A stretch of 47,416 bases of DNA from Deinococcales bacterium (GCA_031414595.1 JANNVX010000102.1:1-47416); one strand, 5' to 3'. Positions 1 to 47,416 are shown, numbered from the stretch's first letter. Notes: generated by a model not told the origin, from the sequence alone. A program made the numbers and translations.

Positions 1-224
1 TGAGGAATGGTTTTCTGCCTGCTCCAATAGCTCGCTTTCGTTTTTGTCCTGCAAGTGTTTTATTGTTTGGCAGACTCGCTGTAAACGCTTCTTGAAAGTA
101 TGGAAGTAAGGCTTGGAATTCTTTTTTGGTTAGTCCAGTCAAGGCTAAGAAGCGAGTTTTATTCTTGACGAGTTTGTCGTAATGCAGCACTCGAATAGTT
201 TATCCTAATTTCCGATAACGTCTA
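1..224 (-). mobile_element. Left end of an IS5-family (ISL2-like) insertion sequence, truncated by the window edge
   Basis: A minus-strand transposase N-terminus starts at 190. It is preceded by a terminal-IR-like sequence TAGACGTTATCGGAAATTAG (224-205). Beyond 224 the sequence reads as the interior of a BTAD regulator. Confidence 0.7.
2..190 (-). CDS. Transposase N-terminal HTH region (HTH_Tnp_4/DDE_Tnp_4 type), partial
   Basis: Hand translation from GTG 190: MLHYDKLVKNKTRFLALTGLTKKEFQALLPYFQEAF...KRKRAIGAGRKPFL. The FxxLTGLxxxEF and RxRxxGAGRKxxL motifs are typical of this family. Not in the ORF track. Confidence 0.75.
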   Translation of the reverse strand, partial: MLHYDKLVKNKTRFLALTGLTKKEFQALLPYFQEAFTASLPNNKTLAGQKRKRAIGAGRKPFL

Positions 225-922
225 TTGATTTAGGAAACGCCAACTTATTACCCTCAGAAAACCTTTCCAGCGCCCCAACCTTTATTTTTAATGTTCTTGG
301 TTCAATTCAAATTATTCAAAATGGCATAGAAATCCGTTACCGTGCCAAAAAACGTCTCGAGATACTGATTTACTTGCTCGAGGCTCGAGCCGCCGAACAA
401 TCCGAAAGTAATCATTTAGACTTGCTCGATGCGCTTTACCCAGAATTAACCGAAGCCGAAGGCAAAAATGCCTTAAAACAAAGTGTTTACATCCTGCGAG
501 AAAAATTCGGTTCAGACTGCATTATCAGCACTGCCAGAGGTTACAGACTAGGGGCTGCCAAAAGCGATCTTGACGAACTTTTTACCCAGCCCAACAGCAA
601 ACTCTGGCGTGGCACGTATTTACAAGGCATGGGACAAAGTTATTTTGGAATTGTCCGTGGTGCATTGCTGCAACAACTCCTGAGTGCTGCTTTGAACTCC
701 TTGAACACTGACCCAATAGAAACCATTCGATTATGCCAAATTCTGCTCGAGATGGAACCCTATGACCAAGATGCTTTAGCCCTTTTGTTACAAGCCTCAA
801 CCCACCAGCCACACATTGCCAAAAGCACGTATCAAACCATTCGGCAACGTTACCTCGAGATTGGCGAGGAATTACCACTGGATATGAAAACTTTTATGAC
901 CGAACAGCGTGTTTTGAATTAA
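225..922 (+). pseudogene. 3' remnant of a SARP/BTAD-domain transcriptional regulator, interrupted by the IS
   Basis: The frame is open from ~209 with no proper start: FNVLGSIQI...LEILIYLLEAR, LLDALYPE, LKQSVYILRE, LLEMEPYDQDALALLLQA (wHTH + BTAD). Confidence 0.7.
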
Positions 923-923
923 T

Positions 924-1445
924 TCATGGCAAGCGCGAAAAAATCACTTTCGCAGCAGCTTTAGCCACCTCGAGCGAATTCTTATTTTTTTGATAAACCG
1001 TGATGAAAACACCAATGTTTTTCTTAGTAAATCCAAGGATCGTGGTTGGGAAACGGGTCATTACTTCCACCGTAAAAGCCCCAGCGCTAGGGCTGTCCAG
1101 TGGCACAATTTTCACGTTCGGCATTGAAAATTTCATGATTTCTTGTCGGGCTTTGGCTTGTTCCAAAGCGATTTTGGCTGATTCAAAAGCAACCACCTCG
1201 AGATTCAAACCAATATTTTGTGACATATAGGCGCAGTTACTCGAGGGGGTAGTACCAGTCACTTGGTTGCTACCAGGTTTCGTGATTGGGGCTTTATCAG
1301 ATTTTTCTTGTGGGCTTAAACCAGTCCCCAACCAAGCGGTGACTTCTTTGACAGTTAGTAACGTACAGGCTTTTGGCAATACAGGTTCGGCATAAGCAAG
1401 CGTTAAGAACACAAAACTACTGGCTAAAAGTTGTATTTTTTTCAT
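924..1445 (-). CDS. Secreted hypothetical protein
   Basis: ATG 1445 follows RBS GAGGAG. Signal peptide MKKIQLLASSFVFLTLAYA; ACTLLT...NCAY cysteine pair. Confidence 0.75.
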   Translation of the reverse strand: MKKIQLLASSFVFLTLAYAEPVLPKACTLLTVKEVTAWLGTGLSPQEKSDKAPITKPGSNQVTGTTPSSNCAYMSQNIGLNLEVVAFESAKIALEQAKARQEIMKFSMPNVKIVPLDSPSAGAFTVEVMTRFPTTILGFTKKNIGVFITVYQKNKNSLEVAKAAAKVIFSRLP

Positions 1446-2253
1446 GGCGGTCTCCTCTTCGAGCAATAATAATTAAACGTGGGCTGCTGAGTACAAACCT
1501 TCCACCGTCGGGACTAGAGACGATTTGTTCGACAATAAATCCGTTGGCTACAAGCATGGTTTTTAATTCGTTTAAGGTGTATAAGCGTACCGCAAAAGTA
1601 TCAGTTTGCAGTGTTTTTCCAAGCCTGCAAATTTTTTTGCTTCCGTGCATTTCGCCTTTTTCAAGGTCAAACCCCGAGGTGGTGATGGTGTACAAATCTG
1701 TGTGTAGTAAACGATTTTTTACTAAACTTAACTGGCGTTTAAGGCTTTTCCAACGACCATAAAACCAGTGCTGCTCGAGCAGTTTTTCTAATACTTTGGC
1801 ATCGCGGTTATAAACCTCAAGTAAGAAATATCCATTTGGTTGCAATGCCTTATAAACCCCTTGCAGGATTGTATTGTGGGTGGTGTCATCCCAGTAAAAC
1901 ATCGAATTGTACAAGTTATAAATAGCCTTAAACTGCTGGTTAAACTCGAGGGTTCGCATATCGCCTTTTGTAAACTCGAGGGCTAACGAACGGCTTTTAG
2001 CTTCGGCTCGAGCGTGGTCTAGGGCTGCTTCGGAGTAGTCCAGTCCTGTCACATTTGTAAATCCACGCTTTGCCAACTCGAGGGCGTGCCGCCCATGCCC
2101 ACAAGCCAAATCAAGAATGGTATCTGAGGTTTTTAAGTCCAGTAAACGCAGTAGTAAATCAGACTGGCTACTTGTACTTTGACGTGAATGCCGTAACCCT
2201 TCGGCATTCACGTAGGCTTGGTTAAATAGCTTTTCAGTCCAACTGGTTGTCAT
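1417..2253 (-). CDS. Class I SAM-dependent methyltransferase
   Basis: Motif I ILDLACGHGRH, plus GLDYS, GDMR, LQPNGYFLLE. The true start is ATG 2253 (TAATG overlap with the upstream peptide). Confidence 0.9.
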   Translation of the reverse strand: MTTSWTEKLFNQAYVNAEGLRHSRQSTSSQSDLLLRLLDLKTSDTILDLACGHGRHALELAKRGFTNVTGLDYSEAALDHARAEAKSRSLALEFTKGDMRTLEFNQQFKAIYNLYNSMFYWDDTTHNTILQGVYKALQPNGYFLLEVYNRDAKVLEKLLEQHWFYGRWKSLKRQLSLVKNRLLHTDLYTITTSGFDLEKGEMHGSKKICRLGKTLQTDTFAVRLYTLNELKTMLVANGFIVEQIVSSPDGGRFVLSSPRLIIIARRGDRHEKNTTFSQ

Positions 2254-2390
2254 TAGATACTCAGTCCTGTGACCAGCACATACTGTTCTTGAGGCTCGAG
2301 ATGCGGCGGAGTGTAGGGTTCTTGTTGTTGCGGCAATGTATCTACTTGGGATTCTGGGAGCAATAAATCTGCCGTGGGTTCTGATGGCAT
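2253..2390 (-). CDS. 45-aa peptide with YxxPxL...TG motif (RiPP-precursor-like)
   Basis: MPSEPTADLLLPESQVDTLPQQQEPYTPPHLEPQEQYVLVTGLSI*. TAATG stop/start overlaps at both ends. Below the ORF-track cutoff. Confidence 0.7.
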   Translation of the reverse strand: MPSEPTADLLLPESQVDTLPQQQEPYTPPHLEPQEQYVLVTGLSI

Positions 2391-2581
2391 TACAAGCCAC
2401 CTCCGTCGTAACAACCTCGTTCGTCTAATGCCCTAAACATCGCATCAGCCATCCAGACGAGTCCAGCTTTGTATAGTCGAACAGCCAATGCGTTTGCTCC
2501 ATCACAGTCCATTGGTTTGGCTTGGGCTTGACCGAGGAACATCATGCAGACACAACCTAAAATCAATAACTTCTTTTTCAT
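2390..2581 (-). CDS. 63-aa secreted peptide with two mature-region cysteines
   Basis: RBS AAGGAG before ATG 2581. Signal peptide ends AQA. Mature KPMDC...RGCYDGGGL. Confidence 0.75.
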   Translation of the reverse strand: MKKKLLILGCVCMMFLGQAQAKPMDCDGANALAVRLYKAGLVWMADAMFRALDERGCYDGGGL

Positions 2582-2652
2582 AAATCTCCTTTGTGACTCG
2601 AGAAGGCGAATACCAAGTGACCGATTCAAATACCAGAGTTGAAAATATGGAT

Positions 2653-12228: not shown

Positions 12229-12456
12229 ATGAGCGTCAAAGATAAGTTACTCGAGAAAATAGAAACCATGACCCAAGCCGACCTTGAATGGTTAAGTTCG
12301 GTACTTGAAGCACACGATTACCCGGATATTCGAGTAGATTATGGCGAGGCAAAACGATTAGAAATGATTGATATTCTCGAGAAACTAGGCGCACCAAACG
12401 ACACAGACATGACCGACTTCAACAATTCCATTCAGCGTCGCCCTTGGAAATCATGA
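12229..12456 (+). CDS. Small acidic antitoxin-like protein
   Basis: 75 aa with RBS GAGG; its stop overlaps (ATGA) a short downstream ORF stub. Confidence 0.6.
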   Translation: MSVKDKLLEKIETMTQADLEWLSSVLEAHDYPDIRVDYGEAKRLEMIDILEKLGAPNDTDMTDFNNSIQRRPWKS

Positions 12457-12504
12457 GACACATATTCATAGCAAAAACCAACTATCAGATTAAAGGAGAT
12501 TTTT

Positions 12505-14334
12505 GTGATTAGGTATGAGGTAGGAATTGTTGTGGCAACTACGCGTGAATTGAATGCAATCAAAGGTTTATTTAAATCTGGTTACACTGAACATCGTTTA
12601 GGTTATGAATATGAAATAGCAGGGGGCGGACAAACTTTCATAGGGTATCTTGGAGAGATTTCCAATTGCACTATTTTAGCAATCAAAGGCTTAAAGCAGG
12701 GGAGTGTTCATGCAGCAATGGCTACACTTCAATTATTACGAGAAGGCAGACCACAACTGTTAATTTTAAGTGGGATTGCAGGTTCATTAAGTGAGTCTAT
12801 ACAGCTAGGCGATGTTGTTTTTTCTGATAGTATTTACGCATATGAATACAAAAAAATTCTAGATGTTGAAAATGAAATTTCAGAACAAAGTGAAGCAAGA
12901 GTCATTGAGAGTAGATTTAGTGTTATTAAGTCTTATTGTGAAGAATTCATCAAAGAGAGAAATAAGGAAGTGAGTGAAAAGCCTAGATTTCACTTTGAAA
13001 AAATAGCATCAGGTTCAAAAATAGTTGCTTCCAAAGCTCTAAAGTCAAAAATGGGTGAAGTTGAAAGGCAAGCAAAAGCTGTAGAAATGGAAAGCGAAGG
13101 CTTTGCAAGTGTAGCCGTGGTTGAAGACATACCTTTTTTTGTGGTGAAGGCAATATCAGATTTCGCAGGGAAAGATAAAGTTGAAGGTTTCGCTCAAAAC
13201 GGTACTCAAGATACTGCTGTAAGTAATTCGGCAAACGCAGTTTCCTTATTTATTGAATTTATTAGCGAAAAGTTACGTTGGATAAAAGAAAAATCGCAAA
13301 TGGCAGACTCTTTCGATGTTTTTATGCCGAAAAACGAAGAAAAAAGTTTTATTGAGCTAATTGGTTACACTCCAAGTATCAAAATTGGTGATTTTGATAC
13401 AAAATGCCAAGTGTTTCCCGAGACTGCTTTCAAAAATCCGAATCAACATATCTACACTGATTTCGGAGTAGAGTCGAATAATAAACTAATCTTTCATATG
13501 CTTGAAGATACAGCAACATTAGAAGCTTCAAAAGATTTTTTTACAACTCTCGAAAAGATATTGACAGAAAACAAGGAGTATATTGAATACGAGAAATTTG
13601 TTTCGGCAAACCAAAATGTGAGAGATGGCAATAATCAGTATCCGAGACTAATACACAAACCTATTGAAATAAACGGTAGTTTACATTTAATTTTAGGGAA
13701 GAATAATTTTTTTATTACAGATTTATCAAGTAGAATTCCAGCATTTCCCAACTTAAGAAGTTTCATGCAGGAACATATAGTCAATTCATTAGCAGTTAGA
13801 GTTTGTTTGGTCTTTCAAGAATCTAATCAAAAAATTATTGCCTTTCAAAAACGAGGAGAGAGCAACTCCACCTATTCGGAAGCATGGGATGTTGCTGCTG
13901 CTGGATATATTGATCCTATTAAGCATATTCATAATGAATACAAAAAACTTAGTGCGTATGTTACTGCTCGAAATGAATTAGTGGAAGAACAAAATATAGA
14001 GTTTCTTGATTTACCAAACCAAGAAAGATTTAGTTTTTTTGGGATTTGCAGAATGGAATTGACTAATAGTTTTGATATTATTGCCCTTTGTGAAACTGAT
14101 CAAGATATTGGCAGGCATAGATCACCTCGTGAATCAGTAAAAAAAGTATCAGAATTTGGATATTGTGCGTTAAATCCGAAAGACGTAGCGGATTTTATAG
14201 CTGAAAAGAAATATTGGATTCCCGGAGCAATCATATCTCTTTATATGACTCTTCGTTATTTTGGTTTTTCAAATGAAAATATTTTAGCCGAATTTTCTCC
14301 AATCATTAATCAAATAAGAATTTCTCCGGATTGA
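12505..14334 (+). CDS. PNP/MTA-SAH nucleosidase domain fused to a Nudix-like domain
   Basis: N-terminal LSGIAGSL, LGDVV, IASGS, AVEMES, KAISDFAG. C-terminal FQKRG...AWDVAAAGYID...ARNELVEEQNI. AT-rich, no CTCGAG. Confidence 0.85.
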   Translation: MIRYEVGIVVATTRELNAIKGLFKSGYTEHRLGYEYEIAGGGQTFIGYLGEISNCTILAIKGLKQGSVHAAMATLQLLREGRPQLLILSGIAGSLSESIQLGDVVFSDSIYAYEYKKILDVENEISEQSEARVIESRFSVIKSYCEEFIKERNKEVSEKPRFHFEKIASGSKIVASKALKSKMGEVERQAKAVEMESEGFASVAVVEDIPFFVVKAISDFAGKDKVEGFAQNGTQDTAVSNSANAVSLFIEFISEKLRWIKEKSQMADSFDVFMPKNEEKSFIELIGYTPSIKIGDFDTKCQVFPETAFKNPNQHIYTDFGVESNNKLIFHMLEDTATLEASKDFFTTLEKILTENKEYIEYEKFVSANQNVRDGNNQYPRLIHKPIEINGSLHLILGKNNFFITDLSSRIPAFPNLRSFMQEHIVNSLAVRVCLVFQESNQKIIAFQKRGESNSTYSEAWDVAAAGYIDPIKHIHNEYKKLSAYVTARNELVEEQNIEFLDLPNQERFSFFGICRMELTNSFDIIALCETDQDIGRHRSPRESVKKVSEFGYCALNPKDVADFIAEKKYWIPGAIISLYMTLRYFGFSNENILAEFSPIINQIRISPD

Positions 14335-14435
14335 GTTCTTAGTGTATTTTTGATAGTTAATTTGCAATTCAAATCTAAGGATTCTGCAAAGTACCAAAAC
14401 CTCAAATCTTGACAATAATCACAAAGGAGTAAATC

Positions 14436-14816
14436 ATGAACATCCCATCCGACCTGCAATACCTCAAATCCCACGAGTACGTCCGACTCGAGGGCGACAT
14501 TGCCACCATTGGCATTTCCGACTTTGCCCAAGACCAACTCGGCGATGTTGTCTACGTCGAACTGCCCGAAGTTGGGCGTATCGTCTCGAGCAACGAAGCT
14601 GTCGCCGTAGTCGAAAGCGTCAAAACCGCTTCGGATATTTACAGCCCTGTCTCTGGTGAAGTGATTGAAATTAACTCGAGCCTGACCGATGAACCAGAGA
14701 ACATCAACGCCGAACCTTACGGCAATGGATTCCTCTTCAAAGTCCGTGTCACTGACACCTCGAGCCACTTGCTAGACGCTGCTGCCTACCGAGAAGTTGC
14801 CGAAGCCGAGGCGTAA
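14436..14816 (+). CDS. gcvH: Glycine cleavage system H protein
   Basis: [19 protein letters not shown]; lipoyl-Lys motif VESVKTASD. Confidence 0.98.
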
Positions 14817-14853
14817 GAGCAGATTGGGCTAGAAGAAAAACAGCAATGCCTCA

Positions 14854-14968
14854 CAACTCCCCCACTCTCGTTCCTCGAGTTTCCCCCTCCAAGAGGGGGG
14901 CTTAAAGTACCAGACCTTGACTTTTGAACCCCTCTTGGAGGGGTCGAGCCTAAGGCGAGGGGGAGTTG
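14854..14968. repeat. 115-bp nested palindromic element (REP/MITE-like)
   Basis: Outer IR CAACTCCCCC/GGGGGAGTTG; inner IR CCCCTCCAAGAGGGG (14884-14898) / CCCCTCTTGGAGGGG (14929-14943). Confidence 0.75.
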
Positions 14969-14984
14969 CCCCAAAGGAAAACCG

Positions 14985-16307
14985 ATGAAATACACGCCAC
15001 ACACCCCTGAAGACATTTCCCATATCCTAAAAACAATTGGTGTCCCGAGCGTAGACGCGCTTTTTGATGATTTACCGCTCGAGATTCGTAATCCCAAAAT
15101 TGATATTCCAGCAGGTCTGGACGAACACGGTGTTCTCGAGCATATGAAGGGCTTGGCAGCCAAAAATACCAGTCTCGAGGCTGCACCAAGTTTTCTGGGT
15201 GGAGGAATGCGTCATCATTTCCAGCCAAGCGCCGTCAATGCACTGACCTTCCAGAGTTCGTTTGTGACCGCTTACACACCCTATCAACCCGAAGTTTCGC
15301 AGGGCGAATTACAAGCCATGTTCGAGTACCAGAGCATGATTGCTGCCCTGACTGGTTTGGATATTTCCAACTCGAGTTTATACGATGGCGCGACGGCTGT
15401 AGCAGAAGCGGCACTACTGGCGATGCGCCAAACCAACCGCAGTACAGTCTTGGTCTCAAGGGGCGTACACCCTGAGTACCGCGAGACTCTGGCTACGTTT
15501 CTCGAGTGTGTGGATGCCAAATTGGTCAATCTTGAACTCGAGGGGACAACCACCATTTCGCAAGCCGTTGAGCCAGACATTGCGGCGGTGATTGTGCAGA
15601 ATCCAAATTTTCTTGGTTCGCTCGAGGATATGAAAGCGCTGGCGGCAAAGGCGCATGAGGCTGGGGCGCTTTTTATCGCCGTAGTTGACCCGCTTAGCTT
15701 AGCAGTGGTGCAAGCCCCGTCTGAGTACGGCGCAGATATTGCTGTCGGTGATGGTCAAGTGATTGGCAACGCTGCAAATTTTGGTGGTCCTGCGTATGGT
15801 TTTATTGCGGTCAAAGATGCCCTGATGCGCCAGTTGCCCGGGCGGATTGTTGGAGCAACCAAGGATGTAGACGGCAAGCGCGGTTTTGTTTTAACTTTGC
15901 AAGCTCGAGAACAGCATATCCGCCGTGCTAAAGCCAAAAGCAACATCTGTAGTAACCATGCACTGATGGCGTTGCAAAGCTCAATTTACTTGGCTTCGCT
16001 TGGACCGAACGGCTTACGAGAAGTGGCAACGGTCAGTGCGGTTATAGCTCGAGAACTCGAGGCGGCATTAAATCGGGTTGGTCTCGAGACAATCACAACA
16101 GGCAAATACCTGAACGAATTTGTAGTCAAACTTCCTAAGCCCGCCGTAGAAATTCGGGCAGCATTGTCCGTCGAAGGCGTACATGGCTGTGTCCCAATTC
16201 CGCTCGAGTATGGGTTTGGCAATGCTGGTTTGTTCGCGGCAACTGAATTAACAACTTCGGGTGACATCGCCAAACTCGAGCAGGCATTACTGGAGGTTTT
16301 AGACTAA
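14985..16307 (+). CDS. gcvPA: Glycine dehydrogenase (decarboxylating) subunit 1
   Basis: TAYTPYQPEVSQG, LQAREQHIRRAKAKSNICSN. Confidence 0.97.
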   Translation: MKYTPHTPEDISHILKTIGVPSVDALFDDLPLEIRNPKIDIPAGLDEHGVLEHMKGLAAKNTSLEAAPSFLGGGMRHHFQPSAVNALTFQSSFVTAYTPYQPEVSQGELQAMFEYQSMIAALTGLDISNSSLYDGATAVAEAALLAMRQTNRSTVLVSRGVHPEYRETLATFLECVDAKLVNLELEGTTTISQAVEPDIAAVIVQNPNFLGSLEDMKALAAKAHEAGALFIAVVDPLSLAVVQAPSEYGADIAVGDGQVIGNAANFGGPAYGFIAVKDALMRQLPGRIVGATKDVDGKRGFVLTLQAREQHIRRAKAKSNICSNHALMALQSSIYLASLGPNGLREVATVSAVIARELEAALNRVGLETITTGKYLNEFVVKLPKPAVEIRAALSVEGVHGCVPIPLEYGFGNAGLFAATELTTSGDIAKLEQALLEVLD

Positions 16308-16342
16308 ACTATGTCTAAGAAATTGAGCATGGATGGTGTAAA

Positions 16343-16669: not shown

Positions 16670-16678
16670 AGGTCTTAA

Positions 16679-16999: not shown

Positions 17000-17014
17000 T
17001 AAAGAGGTGTACCT

Positions 17015-18505: not shown

Positions 18506-18510
18506 AGATA

Positions 18511-29912: not shown

Positions 29913-29929
29913 GGGCAGAAATACACCCC

Positions 29930-30347: not shown

Positions 30348-30363
30348 AATGACCTCATTTTAA

Positions 30364-31014: not shown

Positions 31015-31016
31015 GC

Positions 31017-31406
31017 CTAGCGCGTCTCGAGACCAAGCAAAACTCGAGCATGAAGCCTTAAAACTGTTGTAGCGTTTTGAACCGCCTCAGCTTCCTCGGT
31101 GGTTGGGTCGTCTAATTCGCTTGGGTATCGGGCTGGAATCGAAACCGCGTTAATCAAACGGGCTGCTTTTATTTCAGGGCTATTTGATTGAATTAGTGGC
31201 GAAACCATTTGTACCAATTCACGTAAATTGTGCGAAAGCGGTGGGTCAATTCCTTGAAAAAGCAGAACAGCTTTCAAATACTTTTCGCTCGATTGCTGCA
31301 ATAAGTACACAGCCGTATGAGGTGAGTCAATCATTAGCGTTCCAGCCGCCACAAATTCTTCTTCTGCAAAACGTACCCAACGTGTGTAATCTCTTGAGTT
31401 AGCCAT
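31017..31406 (-). CDS. HEPN-domain protein
   Basis: WVRFAEEE, QQSSEKYLKA, SHNLREL, ARYP; ATG 31406 overlaps the MNT stop. Confidence 0.9.
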   Translation of the reverse strand: MANSRDYTRWVRFAEEEFVAAGTLMIDSPHTAVYLLQQSSEKYLKAVLLFQGIDPPLSHNLRELVQMVSPLIQSNSPEIKAARLINAVSIPARYPSELDDPTTEEAEAVQNATTVLRLHARVLLGLETR

Positions 31407-31743
31407 ATAAAACGATGCCTTCTTGGGCAACTCGCCGCGCTAGAATAGATTCCCCAGCTTGGTAATGCTCGAGGCTCATTGGAATAAGGTCAACAGAATA
31501 CGGCGCATTCCAAAAAACTTCATCAGCTTCAATGGCAGCGTTTAACAAAACTTGACGCTCAGCAGTTGGCATTAGCAGCAATAAATCTAAATCGCTTATT
31601 AAGGTTTGTGTTCCTCGAGCCACACTGCCAAAAACCATAATTTTACTTGCACCACTGACCAAGGCAACTTTTTGGGCTAAAAAACGCAGTTCCTCGAGCT
31701 TACTTGGGGGTGCAATTCTTTGTACAACTTGATTGCTTGCCAT
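31399..31743 (-). CDS. MNT nucleotidyltransferase
   Basis: VFGSVARG...SDLDLLL...VDLIP; TAGACT 7 nt before ATG 31743. Confidence 0.9.
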   Translation of the reverse strand: MASNQVVQRIAPPSKLEELRFLAQKVALVSGASKIMVFGSVARGTQTLISDLDLLLLMPTAERQVLLNAAIEADEVFWNAPYSVDLIPMSLEHYQAGESILARRVAQEGIVLYG

Positions 31744-31808
31744 GCTTTCCAGTCTACAAGGTTTTGTCAAGCCTAGCGCGTCTCGAGAATGGGCAGTAAC
31801 ATAGTCTC

Positions 31809-34800
31809 ATGTCTGATAACCCCGCCACCCTAGCCCATAATCTCGAGCAGTCGCTTAAACCCAAACGATTTGCCCATTTGCATCAACACACACAGTACAG
31901 CTTGCTGGACGGTGCGGCTCGAGTCAAAGACTTACTGAAATGGGTCGCTAAAACCAGCCCAGAAAACCCAGCCCTCGCCATGACCGACCACGGTAATATG
32001 CACGGTGCAGTCCAATTTTTTAAGTACGCACAGGATGCTGGTGTCAAACCGATTATTGGTTACGAAGCCTATGTTTCGGCTGGCTCGAGGTTTGACCGGA
32101 TTCAACGCCGAGATGTAGACGGTGGTTACTACCATTTAACGCTTCTAGCAAAGGATTTTAAGGGCTACCAGAACTTATGTAAATTGGCTTCGATTGCCTA
32201 TCTCGAGGGCTTTTACCAAAAACCACGCATAGACCGTGAAGTGCTTGCCTTACACCGCGAGGGGATTATTGCCATGAGCGGTTGCCTTGGCGCGGAAGTT
32301 CCGAATATGATTCTCAATGACCGTCTCGAGGATGCCGAGGAGCGCTTAAAATGGTACTTGGCGACCTTTGGTGATGATTATTATATTGAAATTCAGAATC
32401 ACGGCTTGCCAGAACAGCAAAAAGTCAATCCAGTCTTAAAAGCGTGGGCGGCTAAATACGGTGTCGGAATGGTTGCCACCAACGACGGTCATTATGTGCG
32501 TCATGAAGATGCCTATGCCCATGAGGTACTGCTGGCGATTCAGACCAAAGCCTTGATGTCTGAAGAAAAACGCTTTAAGTTTAGTTGCGAAGAATTTTAT
32601 GTCAAAACCCAAGCCGAAATGGAAAATCTTCTGCCCTCGAGCCAGTGGGGAGACGAAATTTATGACAACAGCAATGTAATTGCCGAAAAATGCAACCTCG
32701 AGTTACCAATAGGTTCAAAGCGAGTCTATCAAATGCCAGCCCTGCCAATTCCTGAAGGGCGAAGCATGGCAGAAGAACTTCGGGTTCAAGTTTATCGGGG
32801 AACAGCTCAGCGTTATCCCAAGGAATTTACCCTCGAGTTGTTGCACAAATATGCTGCCTTGTCTTTAGAGAAATTAGACAATGAAAATCGTGAACATGTC
32901 TTTGCCCGAACCGTAGGGGCGAGGCATGCCTCGCCCTTGCCCGAAACGATGTTGGGTTTGCCCAACCAGCCGATGCCAGAGGCTGATGCTGGTCAGGGCG
33001 AACACGAGGTTCGCCCCTACGAAAAACAGGTTCAAAATCTGAATCTCGAGGAAACCATTTTATTATTGGCTTTTACGGGTGAAATTTGGCTCGAGAATTC
33101 AAAAGCTCAAAAGTACACGCAATACATCGCACTCGATGCACTCGAAGCGGATGAAAACATGGTATCAAAACTTGGGCAGTCCTTGGTGGTCTTACGCCGT
33201 GCCGAGTACGAACTTGGTGTGATTATTCGCATGGGTTTCCCAGATTATTTTTTGATTGTGGCAGATTTTATCAACTGGGCAAAAGACCACGGTATTCGCG
33301 TCGGTCCCGGGCGTGGTTCGGGCGCGGGTAGCCTAGTGGCGTTTGCACTTAAAATCACCAACCTTGACCCAATTGGTTACGGCTTGCTGTTTGAGCGGTT
33401 TCTCAATCCAGACCGTGTTTCGATGCCAGATTTTGATGTTGACTTTTCGGATTCGCGGCGCAACGAAGTGATTAACTATGTGCGCGATAAATACGGTGAT
33501 GACAAAGTAGCCATGATTGCCACTTACGGAACAATGTCGAGTCGGGCGTGTTTTAAGGATGTGGCTCGGGTTCTCGAGTTACCGTTTGCCGAAGCTGATA
33601 AACTCTCGAAACTCGTACCAGTGGTCTTTGGTCGGGCGCTCAGTCTCGAGGATGCCGAAAATGCTGTACCGGACATTAAAGCCATGCTCGAGGCAAACCC
33701 AGCCACCCGTAAAGTCTATGAAATCGCCAAGAATTTAGAAGGTTTAACCCGCCACTCGAGTATCCATGCCTCAGGTGTGGTGATTGGGCGTGAGCGTTTG
33801 GATAACATTGTGCCACTCATGCGGGGCGGTTCGGACGAAGGCGTGGTTTGTCAGTACGACATGAGCAGTGTTGAGGATATTGGCTTAATCAAAATGGATT
33901 TTTTAGGGCTGCGGACCCTTTCTTTTCTCGAGGAAGCAGTGCGGATTATTAAGGAATCCAAAGGTGTCAGTCTCGAGCCGGATGATTTTGGGCTTGAAGA
34001 TGCTAAAACCTATGAACTGATTTCGAGGGGTGAAACCAAAGGGGTTTTTCAACTCGAGGGCGGCGGAATTACCGATGCAGCACGTAAATTAAAACCGCGT
34101 CGAATTGAGGATATTAACGCATTATCAGCGTTGTATCGCCCGGGTCCGATGGATAACATTCCAGCCTATATCGAGCGCCATCACGGACGAGAAGCGGTGC
34201 GTTATGACCAAGGCGAGTTTAATCTGCCAAAGTGCGAACCGTTGTTGCGCCCGATTCTCGAGGAGACTTACGGTATTCCAGTCTACCAAGAGCAAATTAT
34301 GCAGATTGCTTCGGCAGTGGCGGGTTATACATTAGGGCAAGCGGATTTGCTGCGCCGGGCAATGGGGAAAAAGAAATTGGATGAGATGGAAAAAGAACGG
34401 GTTAAATTTGTGGCTGGTGCAAAAACCGTGCATTCCATTCCCGAAGATGAATCAGCTAGGTTGTTTGGCATCCTCGAGAAGTTCGCCAATTATGGGTTTA
34501 ATAAGTGTTTAGTTGGCAATACTGTTGTGCATTCAAGTAATGGTGTGCCTCATACGTTGCAGACTTTGTTTGAAAGTCAACAGTTGATTGAAGTAGCAAC
34601 CCTAGAAGAAGGTTTTACACTTGGGCGCAGTCGTGTGCTTGGGGTTTTTGAAAATGGGATTAAACCTGTTTTTGAATTGCAAACTTCGCTTGGTAAGTCA
34701 CTGGTGGCGACTGGAAATCATCCATTATTGACCTTGAATGGTTGGAAAAATCTCAAAGATTTACAGGTTGGTGACAGAATTGCTGCTCCTGCTCAGTTAC

Positions 34801-37118
34801 CCATTGAGGGTTTGAAAAGTTGGGAAAAACATCAATTGGTGATGCTAGGTTGGGTGCTTTCTGAGGGCAATACTTGTCATCCTTGTGGTTTTTATGTGTA
34901 CACACAGAATCAGGAATCGTTACAAGATATTCTCGAGTCATCTCGGGGTTTTGTGGAAACTCAAGCAACTGCTAAACTCCGTGCAGACCGAAATAATGTT
35001 TTTGATATTTATGTTGGAACTGGGAAGCGCGGGATTGCTGGACGGTCTGGGGCGCGACTTTGGCTGGAGTCGCTTGGTTTGGTTGGTTTGAATGCTATAG
35101 AAAAATGTGTTCCAGAGGCTGTTTTTGAACTTTGCAATGCAGATTTAGCGGTGTTGCTTGGTCGCTTTTGGTCTGGTGATGGTTTTGTGTTTGGGGCTGG
35201 GTCAAATTCAACACCTTATCTTGCAACTTCCTCGGAAAAAATGGCACGACAATTACAGCATTTACTATTGCGTTTAGGGATGGTATCGCGTTTTACGAAA
35301 AAATTATTTAAGTACAAAGAAGGACGAATTGGCTACACCGTTCATCTTTTGGGGCGACGCTCACTCGAGGTATTTGCACACTTAATCGTGCCACATCTGA
35401 TTGGACGCGATACGCAAATCGAGTTACTGACTTCTTTTTTAGAAAATATACCTGCAAATCGTGAAAGCGTTGATACTCTACCTCCTGAAATTAAAGCATG
35501 GGTTGTGGCTGCCAAGGAACGGAGCAATCAAACTTGGCTCGAGATTGAAACAAATGCAGGTGTTTGTATTAAAGAATTTTATGGCGCTCCCAAAACGCAT
35601 AAAAAAGGTTTTAGGCGTGAAACTATTAGGCGTTTAGCGGACTATTTTTCGGATTTACGCCTAAAAAATGCTTGTTCTAATGACTTATTTTGGGAAACCA
35701 TAACGGCTATTGAACCTTTAGGTGATGTCATGACTTATGACCTTGAGGTTGACAATACCCATAGTTTCATTGCCAATGATATTATTGTGCATAATTCGCA
35801 CAGCGCTTCTTACGCATTACTTTCGTTTCAAACAGCTTATATAAAAGCCCATTTTCCAGTCGAATTTATGGCGGCACTTTTAACCGTCGAGCGCCGCAAT
35901 TCCGATAAAGTCGCCGAGTACATTGCCGATGCACGACAAACCAAACTCGAGAATGGGCAGTTAATGCAGGTCTTGCCGCCAGACATCAACCGTTCAAGTA
36001 CCGATTTTAAGGTTGTGGGTGAACAGATTCTCTTTGGTTTGTATGGTGTGAAATCGCTCGGTGAAGAAACTGCGCTTTTGATACTCGAGGAACGGGAACG
36101 GGCTGGGGCGTTTAAGTCGCTTGCTAATTTCTGCTCGAGAATGCAGGGTACGGGCTTAAATAAACGTTGGGTAGAATTTTTGGTCAAGTGTGGCGCATTT
36201 GATATTTTTGGCGCAAGGGAAGCGCTTTTAGAAAGTGTTGAGGAAGCGATTGAATTTGCCAATGGTCAAGCCGATATGAACTCGCAAGGTATGGATTCTT
36301 TGTTTGGCATGGCAACCATTGCGCCAGAGCCAAAACTCAAGTCAATCGCACCGCCAGCCTCTGAGGAAGAATCGCGTTCTCGAGCCATCACTGCCCTACA
36401 ATTTGAAAAGGAAGCGGTGGGTTTATACATCTCTGGGCATCCGCTTGAACATTACCCCGGAATGCTCGAGGCGGCATCTTGTAAGGTCGCGCAGTCAGAA
36501 GTCTGGTTTCATACCTCATCCGCGCCTGTTGGCTACCGTGGGCGCAAGCGGGCGGTCTTAGCGGGGATGATTAGCGGGGTGCAACGCAAACCGACAAAAT
36601 CTGGTGGGATGATGGCACGGTTTATCCTGACCGATGATGCTGGTGCAGCCGAATTGGTGGCGTTTTCTCGAGCGTATGACAAGATTAACGACAAACTGAT
36701 TGAGGACAGCCCCGCCTTGGTGGTGGTTGAAATTGAACCAGATGGCGAAGAAGGGGTTCGTGTCACGGTCGAAGAGCTACTGCCTTATGAAGAAGCCAAG
36801 ACCATGCCCAAAACCCTTGCTTTAGAACTGAACCTGAGCCTTCTCGAGCCAAAAATGCTTTCACACCTTGATGAAATGCTACAAATGCAAGATGGTATTG
36901 CCAACATCCCGATTCATTTGCGTTTAATTGGCAACGATGCCTTTGAAATTTGGGAACTGACCCATAAAGCCTCGGATGCCACACTGCAACGCCTAAAACT
37001 CGAGTGTCCGTGGTTAAAAGTTGGCATGGGCATATCGGGCGAAGCGGTCTTGGCTAAAACTGCACCAGCTAAAAAGCCGTGGGAAGGTAAAGCAAAAACC
37101 CCTCGAGTGGAGAATTAA
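31809..37118 (+). CDS. dnaE: DNA polymerase III alpha subunit (intein-containing precursor)
   Basis: HLHQHTQYSLLDGA (PHP), GPGRGSGAGS, MPDFDVDF, KMDFLGLRTL, YGFNK|SH. Confidence 0.98.
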   Translation: MSDNPATLAHNLEQSLKPKRFAHLHQHTQYSLLDGAARVKDLLKWVAKTSPENPALAMTDHGNMHGAVQFFKYAQDAGVKPIIGYEAYVSAGSRFDRIQRRDVDGGYYHLTLLAKDFKGYQNLCKLASIAYLEGFYQKPRIDREVLALHREGIIAMSGCLGAEVPNMILNDRLEDAEERLKWYLATFGDDYYIEIQNHGLPEQQKVNPVLKAWAAKYGVGMVATNDGHYVRHEDAYAHEVLLAIQTKALMSEEKRFKFSCEEFYVKTQAEMENLLPSSQWGDEIYDNSNVIAEKCNLELPIGSKRVYQMPALPIPEGRSMAEELRVQVYRGTAQRYPKEFTLELLHKYAALSLEKLDNENREHVFARTVGARHASPLPETMLGLPNQPMPEADAGQGEHEVRPYEKQVQNLNLEETILLLAFTGEIWLENSKAQKYTQYIALDALEADENMVSKLGQSLVVLRRAEYELGVIIRMGFPDYFLIVADFINWAKDHGIRVGPGRGSGAGSLVAFALKITNLDPIGYGLLFERFLNPDRVSMPDFDVDFSDSRRNEVINYVRDKYGDDKVAMIATYGTMSSRACFKDVARVLELPFAEADKLSKLVPVVFGRALSLEDAENAVPDIKAMLEANPATRKVYEIAKNLEGLTRHSSIHASGVVIGRERLDNIVPLMRGGSDEGVVCQYDMSSVEDIGLIKMDFLGLRTLSFLEEAVRIIKESKGVSLEPDDFGLEDAKTYELISRGETKGVFQLEGGGITDAARKLKPRRIEDINALSALYRPGPMDNIPAYIERHHGREAVRYDQGEFNLPKCEPLLRPILEETYGIPVYQEQIMQIASAVAGYTLGQADLLRRAMGKKKLDEMEKERVKFVAGAKTVHSIPEDESARLFGILEKFANYGFNKCLVGNTVVHSSNGVPHTLQTLFESQQLIEVATLEEGFTLGRSRVLGVFENGIKPVFELQTSLGKSLVATGNHPLLTLNGWKNLKDLQVGDRIAAPAQLPIEGLKSWEKHQLVMLGWVLSEGNTCHPCGFYVYTQNQESLQDILESSRGFVETQATAKLRADRNNVFDIYVGTGKRGIAGRSGARLWLESLGLVGLNAIEKCVPEAVFELCNADLAVLLGRFWSGDGFVFGAGSNSTPYLATSSEKMARQLQHLLLRLGMVSRFTKKLFKYKEGRIGYTVHLLGRRSLEVFAHLIVPHLIGRDTQIELLTSFLENIPANRESVDTLPPEIKAWVVAAKERSNQTWLEIETNAGVCIKEFYGAPKTHKKGFRRETIRRLADYFSDLRLKNACSNDLFWETITAIEPLGDVMTYDLEVDNTHSFIANDIIVHNSHSASYALLSFQTAYIKAHFPVEFMAALLTVERRNSDKVAEYIADARQTKLENGQLMQVLPPDINRSSTDFKVVGEQILFGLYGVKSLGEETALLILEERERAGAFKSLANFCSRMQGTGLNKRWVEFLVKCGAFDIFGAREALLESVEEAIEFANGQADMNSQGMDSLFGMATIAPEPKLKSIAPPASEEESRSRAITALQFEKEAVGLYISGHPLEHYPGMLEAASCKVAQSEVWFHTSSAPVGYRGRKRAVLAGMISGVQRKPTKSGGMMARFILTDDAGAAELVAFSRAYDKINDKLIEDSPALVVVEIEPDGEEGVRVTVEELLPYEEAKTMPKTLALELNLSLLEPKMLSHLDEMLQMQDGIANIPIHLRLIGNDAFEIWELTHKASDATLQRLKLECPWLKVGMGISGEAVLAKTAPAKKPWEGKAKTPRVEN
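32913..33020. repeat. 108-bp GTAG-type REP doublet (REPIN-like), in-frame in dnaE
   Basis: GTAG-GGGCGAGGCATGCCTCGCCC ... GGGCGAACACGAGGTTCGCCC-CTAC. Confidence 0.8.
34506..35795 (+). mobile_element. 430-aa intein with LAGLIDADG homing endonuclease
   Basis: Starts CLVGNT after YGFNK; block B ATGNHPL; LGWVLSEG and LGRFWSGDG; ends TYDLEV...IIVHN followed by Ser. Confidence 0.95.
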
Positions 37119-40428: not shown

Positions 40429-41925
40429 TTAATGCTTAAAGTGTCTCGAGCCAGTGAAAACCATCGCCACACCAAGTTCGTCGCAAGCCGCAATCACTTC
40501 AGGGTCTCGTTTTGCTCCGCCAGGTTGGAGGATGGCGGTTACGCCAGCTTTTGCGGCGAGGCGTACCACATCATCAAAGGGGAAGAAGGCTTCTGAAGTC
40601 ATAACTGCGCCAATCGCTTTTTCACCAGCGTTGATAAAGGCGCGTTCGGCTGCCCAGATTCGGCTGACTGCACCAGCCCCTAAGCCCACAGTGACACCGT
40701 TCTTGGCAATCACCACATTGTTGCTTCGGGCATGTTTGCCAACATAAAAAGCAAACTCGAGGTCTTGCCATTCTTGGGGGGTCGGTTGGCGCGTTGTAAC
40801 CGTTTGGGGGTTCAGGTCTGCCCAAATTCTCGAGTCACGGTTTTGGACTAAAAAGCCACCAGTTATTTGTTTGTACTCGAGGCTTGAGAATTGGTTTTTT
40901 TCAGCTTCTAAGACCCGTAAATCTGGTTTTTTACTTTTGAACCACTCGAGTGCTTCTGGACTGATTTCTGGGGCGATTAAAACCTCTAAGAATGTGCCTT
41001 TGGTACTCTGCGCGACTTCTAAAGTCACGGTGCGGTTCAGGGCGACCACACCGCCAAAGACCGATAGCGTGTCGGCATCCCTTGCAGACTCCCAAGCGAG
41101 TTGGGCATTTTCGGCTAAGGCAACACCGCAGGGGTTGGCATGTTTGACTGCCACACAAGCGGGACTCGAGAATTCGCTGACCAATTGCCAAGCGGCATCG
41201 GCATCGGCGTAATTGTTGTAGCCCATCTCTTTGCCAGCCAGTACCGTAGCATCCAGTACCGCGCCTTTTTCGTGACCAAAACGGTACAGGGCAGCTTGTT
41301 GGTGTGGGTTTTCGCCGTATCGCAGGGTTTTTATCTGGCTTAACTCGAGCGGTTGCTGGGCGTTAAAAGTCTGAGTTGATAAATATGTGGCAATGGCTGC
41401 ATCGTAACTGCTGGTGTGAGCAAAGGCTTTACGGGCAAGATTTTGACGGGTTTCTAGGTCTGGACTAAGATTCTCGAGAATGCTTGGGTAATCGTTTGGG
41501 TCTACAACAACAATCACATTGAAGAAATTCTTTGCCGAAGCCCGAATCATCGCAGGACCACCAATGTCAATGTTCTCGAGCGCTTCATCTAAGGTCACGT
41601 TTTGAGCAATTGTTTCGCGGAACGGATATAAGTTGACACAGACCAAATCAAAGCGTTCGATACCGTGAGTCTCGAGTTCACTGTTGTGTTCAGGGGTGTT
41701 CCTTGCCAGAATCCCAGCATGGATTTTTGGATGTAGGGTTTTGACTCGTCCATCTAAAATCTCTGGAAAACCTGTCACATCCGAGACATACTGCACTGCC
41801 AATCCCGCTTTTTGCAGGCTGGAAAACGTCCCACCCGTGGAGACCAAAGTAAAACCTTGTGCGATTAAACCAGAAGCAAATTCGATTAAACCAGATTTAT
41901 CGCTAACACTCAGTAACGCCCGCAT
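40429..41925 (-). CDS. purH: Bifunctional AICAR formyltransferase/IMP cyclohydrolase
   Basis: MRALLSVSDK, GRVKTLHP, IDIGGP, LRYGENPHQ, KHANPCG, RHFKH; start ATG 41925 after GAGG. Confidence 0.97.
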   Translation of the reverse strand: MRALLSVSDKSGLIEFASGLIAQGFTLVSTGGTFSSLQKAGLAVQYVSDVTGFPEILDGRVKTLHPKIHAGILARNTPEHNSELETHGIERFDLVCVNLYPFRETIAQNVTLDEALENIDIGGPAMIRASAKNFFNVIVVVDPNDYPSILENLSPDLETRQNLARKAFAHTSSYDAAIATYLSTQTFNAQQPLELSQIKTLRYGENPHQQAALYRFGHEKGAVLDATVLAGKEMGYNNYADADAAWQLVSEFSSPACVAVKHANPCGVALAENAQLAWESARDADTLSVFGGVVALNRTVTLEVAQSTKGTFLEVLIAPEISPEALEWFKSKKPDLRVLEAEKNQFSSLEYKQITGGFLVQNRDSRIWADLNPQTVTTRQPTPQEWQDLEFAFYVGKHARSNNVVIAKNGVTVGLGAGAVSRIWAAERAFINAGEKAIGAVMTSEAFFPFDDVVRLAAKAGVTAILQPGGAKRDPEVIAACDELGVAMVFTGSRHFKH

Positions 41926-41943
41926 AATTACCTCTTCTCGAGC

Positions 41944-42017
41944 GACCCAGGCGAGCGATCTTTTATAAGCCTTGATTTCCCCACGGATTGCCCGTGTTCT
42001 TCGCCAGTTACCAAAGC
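41944..42017 (-). ncRNA. ZMP/ZTP (pfl) riboswitch
   Basis: Minus strand: GCUUUGGU-AACUGGCGAA...CACGG/CCGUG-GGGA...GAUCGCUCGCCUGGGUC. Shows the GGCG/CGCC pseudoknot and CUGGG core. TACAAT lies just upstream; purH is a canonical target. Confidence 0.85.
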
Positions 42018-42112
42018 AAAAAAATTGTACTCGAGACTTGAATACTTGGCTAGGGACATAACCAAATTCTACAGACATCCAAATGGTTTGGTAAAAGCGT
42101 ATACACTATTGT

Positions 42113-46333: not shown

Positions 46334-46368
46334 AACTTCTGTTTTTAATGTAATAGGGAGAGGCTGTA

Positions 46369-46755
46369 ATGCAATATAAAGACATTCTCACATCTGGACC
46401 TGATACCACATCAGTTAGTTTTTTGGGAATACTAGGGCTAATACTAATATTGATTTTATTTTTTTGGATTTTTTCAAACTACATATACCATTTTTTTGAT
46501 TGTGATTTTAATGAAAAAGAATTTTTCATTAAAGCTGGTATCCTCATAATCAAAAGATTTGAATTAAGTAGAATTGGAAACATTAAACACATCTCACTCT
46601 TAGAGTTTTTCTTGTATCCATTTGCTATACGTCTTGTGAGTTTCTCAATGTATTTTCTGCCTTCTTATCTAGTAACTATAGGTAAAGTACAATATATTGT
46701 AACTCCTAAAAATTCAATGCACTTTTCTGAATTTATTAAACGTTTCAAGCCATAA
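46369..46755 (+). CDS. AT-rich hypothetical membrane protein
   Basis: RBS GGAGAGG; N-terminal TM helix; AT-rich; directly after the IS3 remnant. Confidence 0.65.
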   Translation: MQYKDILTSGPDTTSVSFLGILGLILILILFFWIFSNYIYHFFDCDFNEKEFFIKAGILIIKRFELSRIGNIKHISLLEFFLYPFAIRLVSFSMYFLPSYLVTIGKVQYIVTPKNSMHFSEFIKRFKP

Positions 46756-46942
46756 CCGTATGAAAATCATTTTTAAAATCAATCCTTCCTCAAAGTCACA
46801 CCCCGTGTAAGGTGGGCATCGCCCATCTACATAATCATCTCATCTTTCATAACTTCTTTCCCGCTCGCTCTTCTGCTCGAGCCTCGAGCTTGGAGCTAAG
46901 GAGGAAATTAAGGACAAATGAGGAAAGAGGAAGGCAAGATCA

Positions 46943-46975
46943 AAAGCAAAAACCCCGCCATCTCGAGCGGGGTTT
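46943..46975 (-). terminator. Intrinsic terminator of the Rpn-family gene
   Basis: AAACCCCGC-N8-GCGGGGTTT hairpin with a U-tract on the minus strand. Confidence 0.7.
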
Positions 46976-46989
46976 GGGTTCTCTCGGGT

Positions 46990-47415
46990 CTAAGAAATCC
47001 CGTTCTGCCTTAAACTCTCTTCATTTAATCCTGTTGCAGCTGCGATTTGCTCTAAGCTCATTCCCAAGGCTTTTAGGTTTCGGGCTGTTTTTAAGTTGGC
47101 GTTCAGTTCCCCTCGAGCTTCAGCTTCCTCCACCGCCGTTTTTAATGTCGCATAATTATCACGCAAGATTTTTAGGCTTTGCTGATAACTCTTTTGTTCC
47201 CTCGGTTTGAGATTGGCAAGTTTAGCCCTTTCAAACGCACTGGTAAACACTTTATCACTTAAGAGTTTGGGAATGCTTTGTAAGTCCTCTAAGTTCTTAA
47301 TGAAATACAGCCATTTATCAAGCCGTGTTTTTAGTTCCTCGAGTCGTTTACTAAAATTTGGTATCTCGAGATAAATAAGCGTGAGTTTGTCACAGAAAAC
47401 AAGGTTATTTTGGTC
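46990..47415 (-). CDS. Rpn/PD-(D/E)XK nuclease-family putative transposase, C-terminal part (partial)
   Basis: The frame is open from the window edge: DKLTLIYLEIPNF...LDKWLYFIKN...TARNLKALGMSLEQIAAATGL. Confidence 0.88.
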   Translation of the reverse strand, partial: DQNNLVFCDKLTLIYLEIPNFSKRLEELKTRLDKWLYFIKNLEDLQSIPKLLSDKVFTSAFERAKLANLKPREQKSYQQSLKILRDNYATLKTAVEEAEARGELNANLKTARNLKALGMSLEQIAAATGLNEESLRQNGIS

Positions 47416-47416
47416 T

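Follow-up and report, generated by a model that had tools for sequence, protein, structure and literature searches.

The hexamer CTCGAG, a highly iterated palindrome in an uncultured family of Deinococcales

The stretch of DNA analysed here (the window) is 47,416 nucleotides long and is one contig (C102; JANNVX010000102.1) of a 120-contig, 4,488,778-base Deinococcales bacterium assembly (GCA_031414595.1, called G000 below; GC 0.472). It carries purH, a dnaE gene interrupted by an intein, and an AT-rich island with a single long open reading frame (ORF), all listed in Table 1, and copies of the palindromic hexamer CTCGAG, the subject of this report, are spread along it. By direct count there are 274 of these (5.8 per kb), very close to the roughly 270 estimated in a preliminary description of the window made from the sequence alone. 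One hundred dinucleotide-preserving shuffles of the window gave a mean of 6.37 copies (sd 2.42) and a largest value of 12, and none of the 100 reached 274. With ORFs called by a crude in-house procedure, 158 copies read in frame as CTC GAG, 54 as nCT CGA Gnn and 36 as nnC TCG AGn, and the remaining 26 lie in 5,433 bases of non-coding DNA (4.8 per kb).

The whole G000 genome contains 23,235 copies (5.18 per kb, with a mean gap of 191 bp), where its base composition predicts 972, an excess of 23.9-fold, and copies of the word make up, by simple arithmetic, 3.1% of all bases. CTCGAG is the commonest hexamer of this genome; the next five all overlap it, and the commonest independent one, AAAAAA, occurs 5,616 times. 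Apart from a mild dip of C at position -1 and of G at +1 (to 0.17-0.18), the bases on either side show no strong preference; the word thus has six bases exactly. Every one of the 105 contigs longer than 5 kb carries at least 2.55 copies per kb (median 5.13), and the excess recurs in 18 independently assembled relatives; it is therefore neither confined to the contig under study nor an artefact of assembly. The preliminary description had likened CTCGAG to HIP1, the highly iterated palindrome (HIP) of cyanobacteria, and that view holds both genome-wide and lineage-wide: CTCGAG is a HIP-class word of one uncultured family of Deinococcales. Literature searches, which covered material outside subscription journals and supplementary files, found no published report of CTCGAG hyper-abundance in this order.

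Table 1. Features of the window, with positions counted from its first base
Feature	Position	Strand	Evidence or content
CTCGAG field, 274 copies	1..47416	.	Direct count and ORF-based frame split
Only long motif-free stretch of the window, 2,111 bp, GC 0.35	12376..14486	.	Site count
609-amino-acid ORF in the motif-free island, no CTCGAG	12505..14334	+	PNP_UDP_1 (PF01048), E 2.3e-21, residues 6-250
Stretch used for site retention	14500..34499	+	33/52 to 67/74 sites kept; phase-matched controls 0.18-0.67
dnaE (DNA polymerase III alpha), intein-interrupted	31809..37118	+	Domains PHP, DNA_pol3_alpha, finger, HHH_6, Intein_splicing, LAGLIDADG_3
Intein with LAGLIDADG homing-endonuclease domain	34542..35795	+	DnaE residues 912-1329; GC 0.417
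purH	40429..42078	-	12 CTCGAG; codon-by-codon site map across 27 genomes of the order

Codon usage might yield an excess of this kind as a side effect, left over from a high-GC ancestor that preferred CTC for leucine and GAG for glutamate, and high-GC sister genomes do have raised counts; in one of them (G025, GC 0.69) there are 2.97 copies per kb, mostly in frame 0, with Leu-Glu pairs at 1.59 times expectation. Synonymous codons were therefore permuted within each of 3,832 non-overlapping G000 ORFs of at least 100 amino acids (crude caller; 87.8% of the genome marked coding), a control that preserves both the amino acids and the codons of every ORF. Over ten genome-wide shuffles the coding count fell from 20,326 observed to 1,991, a difference of about 10-fold that extends to each frame (9-16-fold): CTC GAG was observed 12,065 times (shuffle mean 1,316), nCT CGA Gnn 3,981 times (404) and nnC TCG AGn 4,280 times (271). 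The density is the same in coding (5.15 per kb) and non-coding (5.37 per kb) DNA. Outside the word, CTC makes up 8% of leucine codons and GAG 21% of glutamate codons, so both are minor there; accessory genes of low GC bear the full load (as in one with 7.5 per kb at GC 0.39), and the reversed word GAGCTC has just 6 copies in the genome. The codon-relic explanation was rejected on the shuffle test and on the minor status of CTC and GAG outside the word, and we give it almost no chance of being correct. The presence of CTCGAG in all three frames and in intergenic DNA, beyond what Leu-Glu usage can explain, had been proposed in the preliminary description, and it survives the amino-acid- and codon-preserving control in every frame.

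The word has also altered the proteins. In G000, 12,065 of the 20,112 Leu-Glu pairs are spelled CTCGAG, and Leu-Glu stands at 2.22 times its expectation of 9,049, about 11,000 pairs too many, with Ser-Ser at 1.49 and Glu-Leu at 0.98. The ratio of CTCGAG to CTTGAA among these pairs is 12,065:1,609, or 7.5, where the codon shares outside the word predict 0.124; this 60-fold shift corresponds arithmetically to a scaled coefficient of about 4, and it is an upper estimate because the extra Leu-Glu pairs inflate the figure.

Six loci from the closest public relatives, all uncultured Deinococcales metagenome-assembled genomes, carry 4.1-7.1 CTCGAG per kb, and an unrelated locus carries none. The comparison was extended to 31 genomes, which comprise the family of G000 (f1; G000 and 18 others in five genera) and 12 sister genomes in four families. 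All 18 of the other f1 genomes have 4.3-6.8 copies per kb (genome sizes rounded) and 0-568 copies of GAGCTC each, whereas the four sister families range from 0.03 to 2.9 CTCGAG per kb. A tree of PurH, which rests on one gene and a midpoint root, makes f1 monophyletic (support 98/96) and groups it with family f3 and with G030, a genome of family f5 (100/100).

The frame and shuffle tests were repeated on 100-kb samples of four genomes, in which base composition predicts about 0.31-0.34 copies per kb of non-coding DNA. In G013, of a second f1 genus (GC 0.578), CTCGAG occurs at 4.9 per kb and at 6.6 per kb in non-coding DNA, the ratios to shuffle in the three frames are 3.9, 18.5 and 9.7, and Leu-Glu is at 2.06. 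The corresponding values for G019 of family f2 (GC 0.572) are 1.63 and 2.5 per kb, 1.4, 5.8 and 6.5, and 1.12; for G025 of family f4 (GC 0.687) they are 2.97 and 2.4 per kb, 1.8, 3.9 and 4.0, and 1.59. In G020 of family f3 (GC 0.664) the word is avoided (0.03 per kb overall and 0 in non-coding DNA; Leu-Glu 1.06). The preliminary description had set the excess against a GC content of about 45%, and this tie does not hold up: the load is as high in other genera of the family, whose GC is about 58%, and the trait is therefore not bound to low GC. Outside f1 there is a weaker excess in G019 and G025, at 7-8 times base composition in non-coding DNA and 4-6 times shuffle in the off-frames. G030 has 2.3 copies per kb genome-wide, and four of its six PurH sites are common to f1. 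Avoidance is the rule in family f3 as a whole (0.03-0.1 per kb).

Once present, the sites tend to stay. Positions of the retention stretch (Table 1) were aligned to the orthologous DNA of seven genomes of the same genus, with coding hexamers in the same codon phase as controls. The fraction of CTCGAG sites kept was 67/74 in G001 (92% DNA identity; controls about 0.66), 65/71 in G005 (90%; 0.61), 49/63 in G004 (88%; 0.47), 60/78 in G003 (82%; 0.33), 46/59 in G007 (80%; 0.28), 57/74 in G006 (79%; 0.24) and 33/52 in G002 (75%; 0.19). Retention of 0.63-0.92 is thus higher than that of the controls (0.18-0.67) in all seven comparisons; by simple arithmetic, a base within the word changes 3-5 times less than one in the control hexamers. 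Among 94 one-base differences from CTCGAG (pairwise cases, not independent events), 88 are transitions, namely CTTGAG (28), CTCGAA (22), CTCAAG (14), TTCGAG (11), CTCGGG (10) and CCCGAG (3); the two commonest are synonymous changes in frame 0. Transitions at the central CpG number 42 and those at outer positions 33, which is no marked excess. Some presences and some absences of the word are specific to a lineage, which means that sites arise as well as disappear.

The purH gene shows the same over a longer distance. Its site map gives 7-16 copies in each of 15 family genomes at any GC from 0.48 to 0.65, against 6 in G030 and 0-3 in the 11 other sister genomes, and eight of the sites are common to at least 10 of the 15 family genomes. 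At the 11 in-frame sites common to at least five family genomes, the outgroups (132 dipeptides) have Leu-Glu in 29 cases, leucine followed by another residue in 73, another residue followed by glutamate in 12, and something else in 18. Alignment column 1434, for example, is Leu-Arg in 8 of 12 outgroups and Leu-Glu in all 15 family genomes, and columns that are Leu-Arg, Leu-Asp or Leu-Gln in the outgroups are Leu-Glu in the family. These aligned columns confirm the rewriting of the protein by CTCGAG. A separate observation concerns column 1529, where a conserved Val-Ser-Arg uses AGY-CGN in seven family genomes and TCG-AGR, which creates CTCGAG, in eight; such a switch between serine codon families needs several base changes.

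The arrangement of the sites along the DNA was studied with counts at scales up to 10 kb, most contigs being short. In G000, gaps of less than 20 bp between sites are found at 0.3-0.5 of the Poisson expectation, and gaps of more than 1.5 kb are in excess. A spacing of 6 bp does not occur; it would make the avoided GAGCTC. Among distances below 18 bp the commonest is that of CTCGAG-N-CTCGAG (7 bp from start to start), with 101 cases. Counts are under-dispersed at 250-500 bp (Fano factors 0.84 and 0.89, against 1.00-1.06 for control words) and over-dispersed at 2 kb and above (1.24-1.86). A spacing ruler was rejected, since the under-dispersion is confined to 500 bp or less, where by estimate it is attributable to short-range exclusion, and gives way to over-dispersion from 2 kb. 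From 150 bp ahead of gene starts to 450 bp past them the density stays level, and it ranges from 4.3 to 7.2 per kb across starts and stops, with only a slight rise near stop codons (6.6-7.2 per kb); a promoter or terminator role was rejected on this profile.

DNA that seems to have arrived recently lacks the word. The one very long gap in the window had been said in the preliminary description to coincide with an AT-rich gene, and it does: there is no CTCGAG between 12376 and 14487, and the stretch, which is probably recently acquired, contains one 609-amino-acid ORF whose N-terminal part belongs to the nucleoside phosphorylase superfamily and whose C-terminal ~350 residues match no family. 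The domain layout of this ORF could suit a defence effector. Throughout G000 there are 15 gaps of at least 1.8 kb, the longest 4.9 kb, and all 15 have a GC content of 0.32-0.44. Ten ORFs from 7 of the 15 were scanned; they include a polysaccharide cluster (flippase, GT2 and Wzy-type ligase), a clostripain-family peptidase adjoining an AAA/TPR protein, a DUF2326 protein, a subtilase, a WD40 protein, a solute-binding protein and one ORF without a family match, and from these predicted domains the ten are accessory or defence-like cargo. The use of CTCGAG as a marker of residence time, another proposal of the preliminary description, is supported by these gaps. Its remark that the intein has a low density also stands, at marginal significance: of the 31 copies in dnaE, 28 lie in the 4,056 extein bases and 3 in the intein, where extein density predicts 8.7 (Poisson P(≤3) = 0.027). 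By the same gauge, the 21 methyltransferase ORFs of G000 that were measured have 1.3-8.8 copies per kb, mostly at native density, and are old residents of the gene pool despite their patchy distribution.

Some repeats in this region were also seen. At 32912-33021, dnaE contains an in-frame element of about 110 bp whose terminal inverted repeats are 11 bases long and which bears two GC-rich hairpins; it recalls the Rickettsia palindromic elements. Pieces of it about 30 bases long recur at 37 places on 21 contigs of G000, and its terminal word has 73 copies, including four complete pairs that span 110-175 bp; two of the four lie within called ORFs and none contains CTCGAG. Two intergenic repeats (14837-14967 and 23111-23190) have three matches each, on a few contigs of G000, and occur on many contigs of same-genus genomes.

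One candidate for the agent behind the excess is a DNA methyltransferase. In a model patterned on that of Elhai for HIP1, an enzyme specific for CTCGAG or TCGA would mark the sites, and methylation-dependent repair or function would create and keep them; similarly, the preliminary description suggested an orphan methyltransferase with biased repair. Seven Pfam families were searched (TaqI_C, N6_N4, C5-cytosine, Eco57I, N6_Mtase, D12 and MT-A70), of which TaqI_C and N6_N4 are presumably those to be expected for a CTCGAG or CYCGRG methylase. About 23 DNA methyltransferase loci were counted in G000 (8 Eco57I-type ORFs, 9 N6_N4 matches, 5 C5-cytosine and 1 D12), and two of them have an Eco57I plus TaqI_C architecture, which we take to be that of TCGA and CTCGAG adenine methylases. 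This favors the model, as does the consideration that non-orthologous enzymes could share one specificity, which is not readable from their sequences. Cyanobacterial HIP1 and alternate HIPs also co-occur with methyltransferases of matching specificity, according to the available text of Elhai (2015; PMC4390886), which ties HIPs to these enzymes and in which neither CTCGAG nor Deinococcus was found.

Gene content across the family points the other way. TaqI_C is found in 5 of the 18 other family genomes, with no candidates in the single-contig G013; N6_N4 has no match in G013, C5-cytosine methylases have no candidates in G010, and MT-A70 was matched in one of the five genomes searched. Eco57I, N6_Mtase and D12 matched in all five representatives searched for each, and yet reciprocal BLAST clustering of six genomes that represent the five genera gave no methyltransferase orthogroup common to all. 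The nearest approach is a protein of the N6_Mtase family, possibly HsdM-like, with identities of 59%, 39% and 28%, and methylase ORFs are mostly 25-60% identical where flanking housekeeping genes are 70-93% identical. Two candidates for a family-wide factor were rejected, a divergent 424-amino-acid methylase (G000 C72:42131-43405) that seemed conserved but has orthologs in only 3 of 18 genomes, and TaqI/PaeR7I-type methylases in view of the TaqI_C distribution. An apparent link between TaqI_C and CTCGAG, suggested by G019 and G025, which have both a TaqI_C gene and a raised count, fell with G022 and G026, whose clear M.TaqI-like genes go with a low density of the word; f5 genomes that combine clear M.TaqI-like genes with a low CTCGAG density also count against the methylation model. 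A Vsr-type repair endonuclease was found in none of the 19 family genomes by a search whose control matched in three model bacteria, and the CpG transitions noted above (42 against 33 at outer positions) speak mildly against 5-methylcytosine at the CpG. The suggested orphan methyltransferase with biased repair is thus not borne out by gene content, from which the methylase-plus-repair model gains no support, and we consider methylation-driven maintenance unlikely. Of five marks of a HIP that were checked, four are found for CTCGAG, and a conserved accompanying orphan methyltransferase is, as judged from the predicted genes, lacking.

One methylase locus deserves description in its own right. 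At G000 C4:28798-31530 (L029) a 661-amino-acid methylase (helix-turn-helix, N6_Mtase and TaqI_C domains; the closest solved relative by architecture is M.BseCI, E 8.5e-8) is followed by a 246-amino-acid ORF without a family match. Both are kept in G001 and G003, where the methylase is 88% and 68% identical and its partner 94% and 85%, and the two are likely a restriction-modification pair by their predicted arrangement. A search for the XhoI-family nuclease (PF04555) gave no match in G000 and five other genomes (three of them from f3), a result of little weight at best, as the control genomes never matched. As a restriction target CTCGAG would be expected to be avoided, and in G000 it is 24-fold enriched. 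Other palindromes there are avoided: among the six-base palindromes, 64 in number, 34 do not reach 0.1 of expectation, 47 do not reach 0.3 and only six exceed 1, and CTCGAG is the outlier. GGCC has 152 copies (0.01 of expectation), GGGCCC none, TGCGCA two, and GATC is at 0.14 of expectation; the loci of the relatives are also without GGCC, and G013 and G019 avoid partly different sets. ATCGAC (63 copies) and GTCGAT (59), for each of which about 1,000 are expected, and ATCGAT (89) and GTCGAC (26) show that RTCGAY is avoided as a whole, which may reflect a restriction enzyme with a degenerate site.

The data show a sequence-specific bias of moderate strength that acts on double-stranded DNA without regard to coding, keeps existing copies of CTCGAG and favors new ones; this bias, combined with the guess about uptake below, is the account that we favor, tentatively and at somewhat less than an even chance. 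The full word stands at about 24-60 times its neutral expectation at equilibrium, equivalent to a scaled coefficient of about 3-4 per site. Such a bias is strong enough to fix amino acid changes (the ~11,000 extra Leu-Glu pairs), and it is slow, as newly acquired DNA is still without the word; it appears to be independent of a conserved orphan methyltransferase and of Vsr-type repair. Our best guess at the agent, offered as a possibility, is a self-mark in DNA uptake or recombination, by analogy with the uptake signal sequences (USS) of Pasteurellaceae and the DNA uptake sequences (DUS) of Neisseriaceae, the established cases in which a short word attains such a load, alters the proteome and is absent from newly arrived DNA. 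DNA bearing CTCGAG would be preferentially taken up or recombined within the gene pool of the family, and natural transformation and recombination drive would spread the word, as they do USS and DUS. Of the 19 family genomes, 18 have ComEC and 18 have DprA. For HIP1, the available text of Rodriguez-Cruz et al. (2026; PMC13756078) reports that abundance tracks competence and pilus genes and proposes a DNA-uptake watermark, and experiments cited there indicate that HIP1 in donor DNA raises transformation in a way that depends on methylation.

Several points weigh against this account. That transformation effect of HIP1 needs methylation, as cited in PMC13756078, and no conserved methylase was found here. 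ComEC and DprA are present in all 12 sister genomes as well and do not discriminate, so the uptake guess withstands a refutable test yet gains no specific support from it. No receptor for CTCGAG uptake has been identified. The known uptake words are asymmetric and have 9-12 bases at about 1 per kb, whereas CTCGAG is a six-base palindrome at 5 per kb, and DNA uptake by Thermus is, to our knowledge, not sequence-specific. Patchy accessory genes such as the methyltransferases, at their native load of 1.3-8.8 per kb, would need long circulation within the family. Retention between species would look alike under a fixation bias and under a low mutation rate at protected sites; moreover, the retention values come from 20 kb, the ORF calls are crude, and the genomes compared are related rather than independent.

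Two further agents could act on the word. It might be the binding site of an abundant dimeric chromosome-organising protein, the density of sites being under selection for the compaction or maintenance of the nucleoid; an exact palindrome of 6 bp, no preference in the flanks, equal density in coding and non-coding DNA, the flat profile at gene boundaries, the deficit of neighbors closer than 20 bp (0.3-0.5 of Poisson) and the under-dispersion at 250-500 bp all suit such a site, and a role in chromosome structure has been proposed for HIP1 (Xu et al. 2018, as far as its available text goes; PMC5861425). There is, however, no long-range ruler (Fano 1.24-1.86 at 2 kb and above), the sub-kilobase under-dispersion is by estimate explained by short-range exclusion alone, motif-free islands of up to 4.9 kb are tolerated, and no candidate protein was found, so that we regard a nucleoid site as quite improbable. 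Alternatively, CTCGAG could be a Chi-like or other self mark that halts a host nuclease or defence system, DNA without it being destroyed. Its absence from recently acquired DNA fits this, and high defence pressure is indicated by the 34 of 64 six-base palindromes below 0.1 of expectation together with many restriction-modification genes. AddA-like helicase-nucleases occur in part of the family (the G000 homolog, at the end of a contig, is 51% identical), and the 19 family genomes have almost no match to two common prophage marker families: the terminase TerL_ATPase (PF03354) matches none of them, and the HK97 capsid (PF05065) gives one sub-threshold match. But the known Chi words lack symmetry, show a strand bias and are enriched far less, PDDEXK_1 matched in only 12 of the 18 other family genomes, the partner gene of the G000 AddA-like homolog was not found, and motif-free islands persist in the chromosome; a nuclease-halting mark therefore seems very unlikely. 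Among the matches listed, viral contigs that resemble the CTCGAG pattern are mainly of high GC, and GAGCTC is abundant in most of these too.

The fullest version of the favored account, in which CTCGAG is a methylation-independent self-watermark of the family gene pool, read by a putative dimeric DNA-binding factor in uptake, recombination or defence, must be called doubtful. Its drive would have put ~23,000 copies of the word and ~11,000 surplus Leu-Glu pairs into each genome; should this hold, CTCGAG would be the first palindromic hexamer among words of the uptake-signal type, HIPs would have a second, independent origin, and the case could show what HIP words are for. Whatever the agent, the doubled Leu-Glu and the PurH rewrites are a clear example of a force at the DNA level that overrides selection at the protein level. 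CTCGAG also dates gene acquisition and flags foreign islands, and it could serve as a signature of the family in metagenome binning and contamination checks.

Comparison with known systems places the word as follows. The USS and DUS words, reportedly treated by Mell and Redfield in 2014, resemble it in being family-wide, in very high copy, present in coding DNA at a cost to proteins and lacking in new DNA, and the CTCGAG hosts keep the competence genes for ComEC and DprA; those words are, however, longer, non-palindromic and sparser, as noted above, and CTCGAG is not known to bias uptake or to have a receptor. In the Dcm-Vsr (CCWGG) and Dam-MutH-SeqA (GATC) systems of enterobacteria, methylation-linked repair or function likewise raises or maintains a short palindrome, but the effects are small (less than 2-fold), Vsr was found in none of the 19 genomes of the CTCGAG family, and GATC stands at 0.14 of expectation in G000. 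XhoI/PaeR7I-type systems do recognize CTCGAG, an example being the predicted MamA/MSMEG_3214 pair of M. smegmatis (in the available text of PMC7526240), but a genome normally avoids its restriction targets, as family f3 avoids CTCGAG (0.03-0.1 per kb), and in f1 the word is hyper-abundant.

The closest parallel is HIP1 (GCGATCGC) with the alternate HIPs. Like them, CTCGAG is a short GC-containing palindrome in genome-wide excess, 24-fold where HIP1 reaches 15- to 300-fold (PMC5861425, available text); it occurs in all frames and in spacers, is lineage-wide, and its copies are conserved above controls with a function that is unexplained. The available text of Xu et al. (2018; PMC5861425) describes selection on HIP1, with copies conserved above controls, and for HIP1 also a quasi-periodic spacing at the 10-90 kb scale. 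The differences are that HIP1 has eight bases and CTCGAG six, that the phylum is another, and that the HIP1 core CGATCG has only 3 copies in the 4.49 Mb of G000; HIP sites occur at about 1 per kb (Elhai 2015, available text; PMC4390886) and CTCGAG at 5.2 per kb, and no conserved methyltransferase of the GATC/CGATCG or another orphan type was found in the CTCGAG family. CTCGAG is thus of the HIP class but not a member of HIP1. HIP1 has been without an agreed function for three decades, as the available texts of PMC5861425 and PMC13756078 have it, and a second, independent and denser case makes the competing ideas about HIPs testable by comparison, in which features confined to one system drop out and those that the two share are candidate causes.

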